DNA from: a virus
Lineage: Duplodnaviria; Heunggongvirae; Uroviricota; Caudoviricetes
Direction: 5' to 3' (one strand)
Length of the DNA: 32,846 bases
Virus record (IMG/VR): IMGVR_UViG_2660238446_000011
Below, piece after piece: positions 3,155 to 6,329 of the stretch. Position 1 is the stretch's first letter, and every line of letters starts with the position of its first letter. Made by a program: the position numbers and the translations under genes. Below the pieces are notes generated by a model. It was not told the origin of the DNA and searched no databases. It saw nothing but the letters and a program-made list of their open reading frames with translations.

Positions 3155-3516
3155 TATGCTCCAGCCTCCGGTGCTTTTGGCATTACTGCCCAGTGAGTGA
3201 TATTGACGTTTTCAAGGTCCCCGACCTGAAATGTCCACTGCCATTCTCCGGTTTCTTTTTGTCCCCAGGTGTACCAGAGAGAACGCCAGCCAATTAGCCA
3301 GCCTTCTCCTTTAGCATCGAATAACAAAACACTTTCATTTGCTGGTGGCAGTTCAGTTGGCATTGGTATTACTTTGTTTTCCTGTGCTGCACATTTAGCT
3401 TCAAGCGCATCGAATTTACGCACCAGGTATTCAGCATCTGTTTCATTTACTTTCAGATCTCGCGGTACACATCTCCCACGAAGAAACCCTTCCATTTCGA
3501 AAACATTCATGCGCAT
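3154..3516 (-). CDS. hypothetical phage early protein (120 aa), possibly DUF551-like
   Basis: ORF packed with overlapping start/stop between flanking genes; Trp-rich C-terminal region (WLIGWRSLWYTWGQKETGEWQW) reminiscent of DUF551 phage proteins; weak. Confidence 0.5.
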   Translation of the reverse strand: MRMNVFEMEGFLRGRCVPRDLKVNETDAEYLVRKFDALEAKCAAQENKVIPMPTELPPANESVLLFDAKGEGWLIGWRSLWYTWGQKETGEWQWTFQVGDLENVNITHWAVMPKAPEAGA

Positions 3517-4043
3517 TTGCGTAACTCCGATAACTCGTTAAAGCGTTCCATAAACATCCCGTAGGCATGGCCCGGTGCCAGTGGAATCACGTTGAACATC
3601 TCTGTTGCCGGGATACCTTCCAGTACAGGCCAGAAAGAGCCATCATCAAGCCCGAGATCGCGGCGTTCGGTTGCCAGCATGATGAGATCGGCATATTTCA
3701 CGGGCGTACTCATAACTGGGGGTAACCCGTATTTCTCACGGATTACGGCGTCTATTTTTTCTTCCATTTGTTTATAGTCAGGAAGAAGGCGTTTCAGTGG
3801 TGCGGGAATGTCCTGGCAATACGCTTCTGTTGCATCATGCATTAACGCTTCAAAAGCAAATTCCTGCGGCACCAGCTGGCTGCAAAGAACCGCATGTTGG
3901 GCGACGCTGTAGAAGTGCGAAAGATGACCGGCAAAGCGACAGATATTTGAAAGGGAAACCGCGATATCGTTAATATCGATGTCGTCTTTATTTATCCTGT
4001 CATAATAAAAATGCTTCCCGGAAAAAGTTTTAATAAATGACAT
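3507..4043 (-). CDS. HD-domain phosphohydrolase-like protein (YfdR-like), start at MSFIKTF
   Basis: Translation has H...HD...D metal-ligand pattern (CRFAGHLSHFYSVAQHAVL...LMHDATEAY) and resembles E. coli prophage protein YfdR as recalled. Confidence 0.7.
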   Translation of the reverse strand: MSFIKTFSGKHFYYDRINKDDIDINDIAVSLSNICRFAGHLSHFYSVAQHAVLCSQLVPQEFAFEALMHDATEAYCQDIPAPLKRLLPDYKQMEEKIDAVIREKYGLPPVMSTPVKYADLIMLATERRDLGLDDGSFWPVLEGIPATEMFNVIPLAPGHAYGMFMERFNELSELRKCA

Positions 4044-4100
4044 TTTGTTCTCCACGTATATGCGCTGCACCGCGCTGAATTCGGGTAAAAGGAAGCCCTC

Positions 4101-4500
4101 ACCGTCCGGCGATTATTGAGTCAATTACATTTCCATAAATGCCCCCGTAGGGGCGGTTAGTTTCTCCACAAAACAGAGAAGAACACCTGCGGTGGCAGCC
4201 GCCCGGATGGATTGGGTTATGAGCCCGTCGTCCGGTGATGCTCTTCTCTGTTTTGTAAAAAGGACGGTACCAGCCGGAAGCAAGGGTACAAGCTGGTACC
4301 GCCAAGACTACACACAGCATAAAGTTGTGGTGCCGGGCGCCTCCCGGTGCCTGGCGAAGGTTGCACACCAGGCGGGTGGGTATCCACAGAAGGTCGACTG
4401 TCAGCCTCAACCTTTACCCGCGTGCGCTGAGCCGCATTCACCACAACGCTAAGAATTCTCTCTGGTTGAAAATACTTAGCTGTTATGTGCCTGCTTTTAG
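4101..4500. ncRNA. GC-rich non-coding structured segment (candidate structured RNA or DNA structural site); strand undetermined
   Basis: No credible ORF (only short overlapping junk ORFs on both strands); hairpin GCCCCcgtaGGGGC 4141..4154; 15-bp perfect inverted repeat ACAAAACAGAGAAGA (4168..4182) / TCTTCTCTGTTTTGT (4242..4256) around a 59-nt GC-rich loop; hairpin GGTACCAGC(4266..4274)/GCTGGTACC(4292..4300). Confidence 0.35.
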
Positions 4501-4520
4501 CCACATCAGGCGAGGTGGAC

Positions 4521-4572
4521 CTGGTTATTCCCCAACAACAAGGATTCGGTTAATCTGGTTATCCCCAACAAC
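4521..4572 (+). repeat. tandem direct repeats CTGGTTAT(T)CCCCAACAAC x2 immediately upstream of the 4588 start codon
   Basis: Copies at 4521..4539 and 4555..4572 seen in sequence; possible regulator-binding or leader element. Confidence 0.6.
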
Positions 4573-4587
4573 GCAAAAGGAAAAGAA

Positions 4588-5022
4588 ATGTCCGGTAATA
4601 TCTATACGCTGTACAAATCCCACTGTGAAAATGTTGGAAAGTATCGGGGCATTGAAATCAGTGGGGTAGTGTCATCAGTCGAAATAAGCAAAGTTGAATC
4701 AAGGGCAACATTACTTACTCTTTTGGACCTTGTCTTACATGAGCACCGGAAGAAATTCGGCACTCCCTATAATCAGTTGAATGGGAAAAAGGCTCTGGTT
4801 CACCTTATTCTGATGAAGCATCACTGGATGCCAAAACAGATTAATGAGATGAAATTTGATGAACTTCTTCTTTCAATTCAGGATGAACTCACACTTGATA
4901 AAATAAGCGTAACCGCCCAGAAATTTTTAGATTATCGAGACTGGAGATCACAAATTCATCACTTTGATGATTTTGACGAAAATGAATGGGATCCTAATTT
5001 GTCTGCACAATATCTAAAGTAA
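4588..5022 (+). CDS. hypothetical protein (144 aa), cargo gene of unknown function
   Basis: ORF with purine-rich stretch (aaaaggaaaag) before the ATG; appears AT-rich relative to flanks by eye (not computed); opposite strand to the surrounding early-left operon; no family recognised. Confidence 0.6.
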   Translation: MSGNIYTLYKSHCENVGKYRGIEISGVVSSVEISKVESRATLLTLLDLVLHEHRKKFGTPYNQLNGKKALVHLILMKHHWMPKQINEMKFDELLLSIQDELTLDKISVTAQKFLDYRDWRSQIHHFDDFDENEWDPNLSAQYLK

Positions 5023-5200: not shown

Positions 5201-5258
5201 TTCACATCTCCTCAAGTTATCAGTTACTTGTTGATGGGGACCAGATTGTTAAAGAGCT

Positions 5259-5283: not shown

Positions 5284-5448
5284 TTGCTAACGAATCATCC
5301 TGGACTTCATATGCCCCAGGCGGCTACTTCGTGGGCGTCCTGCCTGTTCGTTTTTGACATTTACTGACTGCTTACGACACATGCACCGTGTTGCAACCAG
5401 ATTTTGTTGTAATCCTGTAGTTGGTCTGGAACAAAAGATAAAATTAAA

Positions 5449-5485
5449 TTGCGAAATATGCAAGTGATGTTTGCGAAATATGCAA
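5449..5485. promoter_or_regulatory. putative OL operators: two copies of TTGCGAAATATGCAA
   Basis: Copies at 5449..5463 and 5471..5485; same TTGCG...GCAA half-site theme as the repressor/cro intergenic region. Confidence 0.45.
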
Positions 5486-5539: not shown

Positions 5540-6232
5540 TTAATTATGTCTCTTAAGGGTTTGCGACTGACTGATTAAGACCTTTCCAAAGACCATGAAT
5601 CGGTGTTCGTTTTCGCTAGTAATTCCCCATTCACGGTAAATCTGGTTATCAGAAATCACCAGCAGTTTGTCAGGAATCATTTGAAGTCTTTTAACGTATA
5701 TTTTGTCATCAAAACCAAAGACATATATACCATCACCATCAAACTGATTGATGCTGACATCAACGAAGATGAGATCTCCTGGCTCAATGGTTGGACACAT
5801 ACTGTCCCCACGAACGTTGATAACTTTGATGTGATTGGCTGGTCGTCCGCCGAACATTGATACAGCATTATCAGTTCTGTATTCGATGGCATGAATCACA
5901 TCAATGACATCACCGCCCTGGATAAGGCCATTTCCCGCACTGGCACTGATATCCAGCATTTCAATACGGAACACATCCTTCACCTGCGCAACATCCTCAT
6001 TATTACTGTTTTTATATACAGTATTACTTTTGTGGGCAGAGGTAAAGAGATCAGCAATATCAACACCTAAGCTCTTGGCAATATTACTCAGTGTTTGTTC
6101 GGTAAATTGTTTTTGCTTACCCGTTTCTAAGCGCGAGATGTTCGCCGCATCTACTCCTATTGCTTCAGCGAGATCGGCGATTTTCATGTTCTTCGCTTGG
6201 CGAAGTTGTCTGACTCGGTTTCCTATGTTCAT
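5540..6232 (-). CDS. CI/C2-type prophage repressor (N-terminal HTH, C-terminal LexA-like S24 peptidase domain)
   Basis: N-terminus IADLAEAIGVDAANISRLETGK is an XRE-type HTH; C-terminus has a GDSM Ser motif and KRL Lys typical of self-cleaving S24 peptidases; divergent from the cro-like gene. Confidence 0.9.
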   Translation of the reverse strand: MNIGNRVRQLRQAKNMKIADLAEAIGVDAANISRLETGKQKQFTEQTLSNIAKSLGVDIADLFTSAHKSNTVYKNSNNEDVAQVKDVFRIEMLDISASAGNGLIQGGDVIDVIHAIEYRTDNAVSMFGGRPANHIKVINVRGDSMCPTIEPGDLIFVDVSINQFDGDGIYVFGFDDKIYVKRLQMIPDKLLVISDNQIYREWGITSENEHRFMVFGKVLISQSQTLKRHN

Positions 6233-6244
6233 GCGTTTATTACA

Positions 6245-6329
6245 TTTCTTTATTGCGTGATAAGCAAATCAACTTGCGCAAAATAATTGCGTGAAATAAC
6301 ATGCATAACGCGCAATATTTGGAGGACAT
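6245..6329. promoter_or_regulatory. OR operator / PR-PRM region with repeated TTGCG / CGCAA half-sites
   Basis: TTGCGTGATAAGCAA at 6253..6267 plus further TTGCG and CGCAA half-sites to about 6314, between divergent repressor and cro-like genes; GGAGG RBS before the 6330 ATG. Confidence 0.6.

Follow-up and report, generated by a model that had tools for sequence, protein, structure and literature searches.

The window analysed here, a stretch of 32,846 nucleotides (IMG/VR record IMGVR_UViG_2660238446_000011), is an Escherichia coli lambdoid prophage beside a tRNA-Thr(CGU) gene at 1369-1441. On the minus strand, next to the tRNA, lies the integrase gene (1459-2622), followed by xis-like genes and yfdT, and then by yfdR (3507-4043). 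Further on are a 144-amino-acid (aa) gene of the ECs1072 family on the plus strand (4588-5022), a 68-aa open reading frame (ORF) convergent with it (5200-4994, minus), a LexA-type cI gene (5540-6232, minus) with a strong terminator (5520-5503, minus), and cro. Two perfect copies of an operator, TTGCGAAATATGCAA, stand left of cI at 5449-5485 and a related operator (oR) at 6253-6267; the operator positions would place a pL-like leftward promoter near 5425. Our subject is the segment between yfdR and the 144-aa gene (4101-4587), in particular the interval 4518-4141 on the minus strand.

A first-pass annotation made from the letters of the window had singled out this segment as GC-rich, rich in hairpins and non-coding, and the features on which it drew are present. 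GC-content rises to 0.53-0.585 from 0.42-0.47 on either flank; a hairpin, GCCCC-cgta-GGGGC, lies at 4141-4154, the inverted repeat ACAAAACAGAGAAGA / TCTTCTCTGTTTTGT at 4168-4182 and 4242-4256, the pair GGTACCAGC / GCTGGTACC at 4266-4274 and 4292-4300, and tandem direct repeats CTGGTTAT(T)CCCCAACAAC at 4521-4539 and 4555-4573. The strong secondary structure it described is borne out by folding (z = -8.9 for the long hairpin formed by the inverted repeat, and z = -3.2 for the 206 nucleotides (nt) upstream of it, where 0 of 200 shuffled sequences fold as well). Its reading of the segment as RNA was broadly right, but it missed the strand, the terminator and the family relationships. Once these are included, we conclude with moderate confidence that 4518-4141 (minus) is the non-coding leader of a leftward early-left, dicB-type operon in a prophage of the SfV/e14/ST64B-like lambdoid type, and that this leader holds a composite locus for a DicF-type small RNA (sRNA).

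That the leader is non-coding is not self-evident. Contrary to the view that the segment has no plausible ORF, a 103-aa frame at 4099-4410 (minus) is the equivalent, at 89% DNA identity, of ymfH from the e14 prophage of K-12. The conclusion that had been drawn nevertheless stands. Comparison of the shared part of this ORF among 43 unique homologues revealed in-frame stops (in the frame of the window) in 19, and insertions or deletions, most of them of a single nucleotide but including some of 5, 7 and 19 nt. Codon positions one, two and three carry 183, 134 and 192 substitutions, respectively, with no bias toward the third. A mosaic boundary at 4143 cuts the ORF, a Pfam scan placed it in no family, RefSeq carries a frameshifted pseudogene in PCN061, and Cys, Arg, Gly and Pro are abundant in the predicted protein. 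Judged by these comparisons the frame is non-coding and ymfH is not a real gene. The K-12 annotation in RefSeq does treat ymfH as a gene for a 103-aa hypothetical protein, and an overexpression clone triggers RcaT, the toxin of retron-Sen2 (bioRxiv 10.1101/2020.06.22.160242); however, that clone also makes the sense RNA, and we find a protein product hardly credible. Re-annotation of K-12 ymfH as RNA would correct an entry of the y-ome, and an RNA could explain results obtained by 'ymfH' overexpression, the triggering of RcaT among them.

A search with Rfam covariance models, which had been proposed as a check, returned one family only, RF02076 (STnc100). The match spans 4477-4254, is confined to the minus strand, covers model positions 1-206 and scores 42.9 bits (E = 8e-8 in a region of 901 nt and 3e-6 in the whole window). 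Sub-threshold matches occur at the same place in SfV, phiES15 and ST64B, and STnc100 scores of 39.5, 40.6 and 35.1 bits were obtained for relatives at this locus. Within the matched interval is a multi-helix, pseudoknotted RNA domain of the STnc100/PasD type, approximately 125 nt long (4324-4447, minus). Its outer helix, P1, pairs 4447-4439 with 4332-4324 and is followed by a junction, AAU (4438-4436), and by the P2 hairpin (4435-4420). P2b joins 4419-4416 to 4377-4374 and P4 joins 4373-4368 to 4354-4349; the last hairpin, P5, reads CCGGG-AGGCG-CCCGG (4347-4333). The pseudoknot, P3, connects the stretch just after P2b (4414-4408) with the loop of P4 (4363-4357), in the window AAGGUUG with CAACCUU.

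Relatives were collected by scanning GTDB genomes and IMG/VR for the conserved motifs; hundreds were found throughout the Enterobacteriaceae. In an alignment of 90 non-redundant members, helices P1, P2, P4 and P5 and the motifs GUGGUGAAU / CACCGGGAGGCRCCCGGCACCAC of the window align with those of 89 relatives and covary. P2 is paired in all 90, variously by CG, GC, UA, UG, GU and AU; covariation is evident in P4, P2b and the outer part of P1, and in P5 a G-C pair becomes U-A in copies of the Qin type. Because G-U combinations are frequent while A-C combinations are rare (at one pair of P4, 28 G-U against a single C-A), the RNA strand is fixed as minus. P3 takes approximately 40 different sequences across the family, yet its mean contiguous pairing is 6.26 nt, compared to 4.65 +/- 0.11 when loops are swapped between sequences; a local alternative to this pairing received no support. 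The comparison of homologous regions for compensatory changes that had been called for was positive, here and in the long hairpin described below, and the option of a structured RNA or sRNA gains from the full-length STnc100 match, from covariation in five helices and the pseudoknot, and from a DicF-like 3' module with its terminator.

The canonical form of the family is GUGGUGAAU-CCCCCUnnGCGGnGGGG ... CACCGGGAGGCACCCGGCACCAC. In many copies a -10-like box immediately precedes the element, and some copies stand in tandem arrays; what follows is either a terminator or, directly, an ORF. Arrays with a period of approximately 220-270 nt are found in Superficieibacter and Enterobacter chromosomes (L043, with three copies, and L042, L039, L056 and L086), each unit having its own -10-like box and terminator.

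The window copy resembles STnc100 and PasD in strand, in the extent of the match, which takes in the whole model, in the signature GUGGUGAAU ... CACCGGGAGGCRCCCGGCACCAC, in helices P1, P2, P4 and P5, and in the linker and intrinsic terminator that follow the structured domain. There are also differences. The P2 stem is GCG/CGC in place of CCCC/GGGG; the P2b/P3 pseudoknot is absent from the Rfam consensus line printed by cmscan; the 3' part is DicF-like; and no promoter of its own is evident. STnc100 and the PasD sRNAs of EPEC/EHEC prophages are prophage-borne (Zhu, Shabalina and Storz, bioRxiv 10.64898/2026.05.13.724894), and in published work STnc100 and the related PasD are sRNAs of late regions with undefined function. 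Described copies are located, for example, downstream of stx2B, in the neighborhood of Q or past the lysis genes, whereas the window copy lies in an early-left leader. Reports of expressed, Hfq-associated STnc100 (PMC5331693, PMC12711010) concern other copies. The EDL933 transcript 'STnc100_1' was considered as a proxy and rejected, since it belongs to a late-region copy; identity with PasB was likewise rejected, as PasB sits among structural genes. Neither BLAST nor a scan of Rfam E-values detected a second STnc100-like copy in the window.

Upstream of the domain, the first conserved block of the leftward leader is a small hairpin, CCACCUCGCCUGAUGUGG, followed by CUAAAAGCAGGCACAUAACAGC (4501-4518, minus). 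It is kept in e14, SfV, phiES15, F1055, L192 and L151, while the sequence upstream of it differs. The SfV annotation labels this hairpin 'putative terminator'; no U-run follows it. In the leaders of two Salmonella phages (L011 and L012) a motif resembling the T-arm of tRNA, GGTTCGATTCCAG, lies upstream of the structured element (alignment A1, columns 170-215).

Downstream of the domain the RNA takes on a different character. A single-stranded linker, UUUAUGCUGUGUGUAGUCUU (4304-4323, minus), leads into a hairpin whose core is the GGTACCAGC / GCTGGTACC pair. On the minus strand this hairpin extends to 13 base pairs (bp) at 4303-4262, formed by GGCGGUACCAGC (4303-4292), a loop of 17 nt and GCUGGUACCGUCC (4274-4262), and it is followed by UUUUU (4261-4257). 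The statement that no U-run follows the hairpins therefore holds for the plus strand and fails for the minus strand, where 4257-4303 is a canonical intrinsic terminator; the deduction that these structures are not simple terminators has to be withdrawn for this hairpin. A consensus terminator scan missed it because the loop is 17 nt long. ST64B, phiES15, L249 and L310 maintain this stem with wholly different sequences. The linker, in turn, is kept across the otherwise diverged e14, ST64B, phiES15, L151, L192 and L249, a pattern from which we infer that it may act as the seed of a DicF-like sRNA (seed UGCUGUGUGUAGUCUU, with UGCUGUGUGUAGUCUUGGCGG common to the window, L151 and L192); it also contains a likely entry site for ribonuclease E (RNase E). 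A search of the window for the complement of the seed found only the locus itself. Two loci with the same terminator and long hairpin, L310 and L284, have a different putative seed, CUGCCAUUGCUUUGGCGGUGCCAG, which suggests that seeds are swapped between prophages.

The linker and terminator together lead to DicF. Scores against the Rfam DicF model (RF00039) are graded: 76.7 bits for Qin, then 41.1, 38.1, 25.8, and 19.4 for the window. The intermediates with 41.1 and 38.1 bits (E = 1e-5 and 7e-5) bear the seed of the window. In L151 and L192 the RNA with this same linker sits exactly at the position of dicF, with a copy of the structured element and a kil/dicB-like gene immediately downstream. 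DicF and the window RNA have in common a UUGGCGGUA(U/C)CAG core (alignment A2), the terminator hairpin and the U-tail, and both belong to leftward, repressor-controlled operons of lambdoid prophages in which the sRNA adjoins the structured element. The 5' seed is GCUGUGUGUAGUC in the window and UUUCUGGUGACGU in DicF, and the hairpin loop also differs; accordingly, ftsZ and other targets of DicF are not to be assumed for the window RNA.

The dicBF operon of Qin provides a parallel. In K-12, the spacer between dicF and dicB (hit H162; L226 1269-1478), which is identical in MG1655, includes an unannotated STnc100-like element (34.4 bits, sub-threshold). The element is closed by an uninterrupted P1 helix of 21 bp that starts 3 nt past the U-tract of DicF. 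The 53-nt DicF arises by termination and RNase E, and RNase III generates the 5' end of a 190-nt precursor and the 3' end of a 72-nt form (PMC5069750; bioRxiv 10.1101/2023.04.14.536235). Mapping has also placed an RNase III site between dicF and dicB (supplement of PMC5371410), and position 72 of DicF would fall inside the 21-bp helix. The order of modules differs, being element, sRNA and hairpin in the window, and sRNA, element and dicB in Qin. Both arrangements share a helix of 20 bp or more placed immediately after the DicF-type terminator, in Qin the one in which RNase III appears to cut (PMC5069750).

In the window this helix is the long hairpin (4162-4261, minus), which has a stem of 25 bp, encloses two small inner hairpins and includes the 15-bp inverted repeat. 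The repeat had been thought extendable to about 19 bp; the extension is real but longer, reaching 25 nt at 84% complementarity as DNA and 25 bp as RNA. The minimum free energy is -63.2 kcal/mol, compared to -32.9 +/- 3.4 in shuffled sequences. At the base, the U-tract of the terminator pairs by U-G pairs with GUGGAGA, which resembles a Shine-Dalgarno sequence, so that the stem starts inside the U-tract. Across 18 distinct homologues, pairing holds in 98.9% of the stem cells, and compensatory changes occur at three stem positions (GC/AU/CG, GC/GU/AU and AU/GC); none of 500 shuffles reached the covariation score, although the pattern with which these homologues were gathered already dictated the 3' arm in part. 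In L249 and L141 a hairpin of unrelated sequence and similar length occupies the same place and is followed by the same GUGGAGAnAC motif. By analogy, the long hairpin is probably an RNase III site for read-through transcripts. It is reminiscent of the RNase III hairpins of the lambda pL transcript (in the N leader and at sib), each being a long, near-perfect hairpin in a pL transcript beside early-left genes that include xis and int; there is, however, no sequence relation, the window hairpin stands directly after an sRNA terminator, and cleavage is here a prediction.

The same helix bears on the proposal that the repeat is significant as DNA, whether as a site of recombination or of a mosaic boundary, as a cruciform, or as a palindrome bound by protein. 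Module boundaries do fall at hairpins. The small hairpin GCCCCUACGGGGGC (4141-4154, minus) marks a mosaic junction: the counterpart of window 4071-4154 is the yfdQ-yfdR spacer of SfV and mEp460, that of 4143-4518 is the leader module, and relative to these two phages the window is without yfdP-yfdQ, the deletion junction lying at the hairpin 4143-4154 that both flanks share. Module A (4143-4305), moreover, can occur and travel alone, as in mEp460 and Stx2c phages, with the structured domain in a separate Module B (4300-4518). Against this, the four U-G pairs at the base of the stem are invariant, and are possible in minus-strand RNA but in neither DNA nor the plus strand; compensatory changes maintain the pairing; hairpins unrelated in sequence substitute for it in other phages; and a BLAST search of the window for further copies of the repeat arms gave only the locus itself. 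With the polarity of the terminator, these facts favor RNA over a terminal-inverted-repeat element or recombination site, and we regard function as DNA as very improbable.

The block is widespread. Of 5426 complete E. coli genomes, 2784 contain some part of it, and in 1131 a match spans 80% or more of the segment; matches extend to SfII, SfIV, SfV, mEp460, ST64B, phiES15 and Stx2c phages. In all 63 loci of the window type the block is oriented as are cI and the early-left genes. Its neighbors, however, vary. The upstream gene is of the ECs1072 family in approximately 19 of the 63, SfV orf33 in approximately 25, and ymfI or another gene in the remainder; downstream stands yfdP, yfdR or xisE. 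Since the neighbors vary, the RNA is not a partner of the 144-aa protein, as had also been suggested, and the idea of a type III toxin-antitoxin system, in which RNA and protein gene should be inherited together, finds no support on the same count.

Taken together, the evidence makes a DicF-type sRNA locus in the early-left leader the best-supported model, for which we envisage the following scheme. The leftward transcript would fold first into the pseudoknotted STnc100/PasD-type domain, after which the single-stranded linker would be exposed. Transcription would mostly end at the intrinsic terminator near 4257, releasing an sRNA of approximately 200 nt, which RNase E would trim to a DicF-like RNA of approximately 65 nt comprising seed, terminator hairpin and U-tail. 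Such an RNA would presumably depend on Hfq and regulate in trans through its seed. Polymerases that read through would produce the 25-bp hairpin, which, starting in the U-tract, would be a textbook substrate for RNase III; the cut would detach the sRNA from the yfdR-xis-int mRNA that follows it and give that mRNA an altered 5' end. The structural prerequisites for maturation of the DicF type (terminator, AU-rich single-stranded stretch and 25-bp helix) are all present, and the scheme parallels Qin dicBF, where termination is combined with the action of RNase E and RNase III to produce DicF. Another of the options first raised, a signal for processing of the early-left transcript, gains support by extension from Qin, where RNase III cuts next to DicF (PMC5069750), apparently inside the 21-bp helix.

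The same features could be viewed as those of a purely cis-acting leader, a device for attenuation, antitermination or mRNA processing by which early-left expression would be gated or stabilized without any trans-acting sRNA; the put RNA of HK022 and the RNase III hairpin of the lambda N leader are possible analogues. In every case the block is situated in sense orientation between the immunity region and the first early-left gene, with the terminator in its middle; no recognizable N homologue is adjacent in these phages, and the 68-aa ORF has no Pfam match; the Qin-type element lies directly in the 5' untranslated region (UTR) of dicB/kil-like genes and has no terminator of its own; and the base of the long hairpin pairs the Shine-Dalgarno-like GUGGAGA. 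All of this would suit such a device. On the other hand, canonical members of the family stand alone, with their own -10 box and terminator, and some have been detected as RNAs; a strongly conserved single-stranded stretch before a terminator is typical of an sRNA seed; and there is one copy in the window and none in the pR operon. The likeness to put is one of setting: both are structured RNAs upstream of a terminator in the early leftward leader of a lambdoid phage without obvious N. The put RNAs, however, are two stem-loops of approximately 70 nt, present as putL and putR (PMC9378689), whereas the window has one copy of a multi-helix, pseudoknotted fold; comparison by eye with the putL/putR sequence and the published structure revealed no similarity, and a put-like antiterminator was rejected. 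Overall we consider control exclusively in cis unlikely.

Several observations nevertheless weigh against a DicF-type sRNA in the leader. Both family matches fall below the gathering cut-offs of Rfam, that to STnc100 at 42.9 bits against 47, and that to DicF at 19.4 bits (E = 0.17) against 48. Pairing with the translation start of ftsZ, evaluated with ViennaRNA duplexfold, was no better than that of shuffled sequences, although the test is weak, as genuine DicF did barely better. A consensus promoter scan revealed no convincing sigma-70 promoter for the leftward transcript within or just upstream of the segment, and in this strain the leader transcript is a prediction from the sequence. Transcription could come from pL, near 5425, in which case it would read through the convergent 144-aa gene, or from a local promoter near 4520-4580.

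A further difficulty comes from published small-RNA sequencing of MG1655, in which a 35-nt RNA, GAAAAAACUGGUACCGCCAAGACUACACACAGCAU, is one of the two most abundant small RNAs of e14 (PMC4398507). This RNA maps to the plus strand (L002 4135-4169, corresponding approximately to window 4288-4322) and is the exact complement of the seed together with the 5' half of the terminator hairpin. Either a cis-antisense RNA of the repressed state or a decay fragment could account for it; in both cases the strand assignment of the conserved fold is unchanged. Expression has support from e14, where ymfH belongs to the induction (YmfT) iModulon and to an intE-xisE-ymfH operon (PMC12132413); the portion of the supplementary RNase III and RIL-seq (ligation and sequencing of interacting RNAs) data consulted contains no mention of ymfH.

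If the 35-nt RNA is functional, the locus could be a cis-antisense system in which a plus-strand RNA opposite the DicF-like module silences or sponges leaky early-left transcripts or the sRNA itself. The abundance and position of the fragment agree with this, and the other reads printed in the same source (PMC4398507) are given in the RNA sense. Scanning and inspection, however, recognized no plus-strand promoter or terminator inside the conserved block; the G-U-rich covariation, the polarity of the terminator and both family relationships lie on the minus strand; and the fragment may have arisen by decay of read-through transcripts. We judge such a system improbable, and it is in any event compatible with a DicF-type sRNA on the opposite strand.

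If the DicF-type locus is correctly identified, two sRNA families that have been treated apart become linked, for a domain of the STnc100/PasD type flanks DicF in dicBF and precedes a DicF-like RNA here. The components are of kinds already known; what is novel is the fusion of an STnc100/PasD-type domain to a DicF-like sRNA with an RNase III-type hairpin. The arrangement suggests a general design for the production of sRNAs from prophage early-left operons (structured domain, seed, terminator and RNase III helix), and the variable seeds suggest prophage-specific targeting of the host during induction. The pseudoknotted core and the K-12 antisense fragment are concrete leads. A bolder proposal, which we offer as speculation, is that the STnc100-type core is a distinct class of pseudoknotted RNA, distributed widely among Enterobacteriaceae and their phages, whose specific biochemical task might be, for instance, to bind a protein or ligand, to direct nucleases or to act on RNA polymerase. 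The core would then be a cassette reused in stand-alone sRNAs, tandem arrays, 5' UTRs of dicB/kil-like genes and early-left leaders, and in the present locus would form a switch on xis/int/kil together with the DicF-like sRNA and the antisense RNA of the lysogen.

The wider prophage yielded some additional observations. The rightward operons of SfV and ST64B include isrK and the C4 antisense RNA, which form an immunity module of the P1/P7 type (L013 27603-27791; L005 6732-6920); unlike these phages, the window has neither. The direct repeats at 4521-4539 and 4555-4573 lie between the leader and the 144-aa gene, in a divergent control region, and a third, inverted copy is found upstream of the 68-aa ORF (5228-5247). 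Copies of AATCTGGT(TA)(T)CCCCA(A/T)CAAC stand 15-25 nt before the start codons of both the 144-aa gene and the 68-aa ORF. The repeats were seen only with the 144-aa/68-aa module or its F1055 analogue, and are probably part of that gene module or its promoter, outside the RNA fold. A Pfam scan assigned neither product to a family. The two genes overlap by 29 bp and always co-occur, and they may make up a two-gene moron under joint regulation, such as a toxin-antitoxin pair or a defence system.

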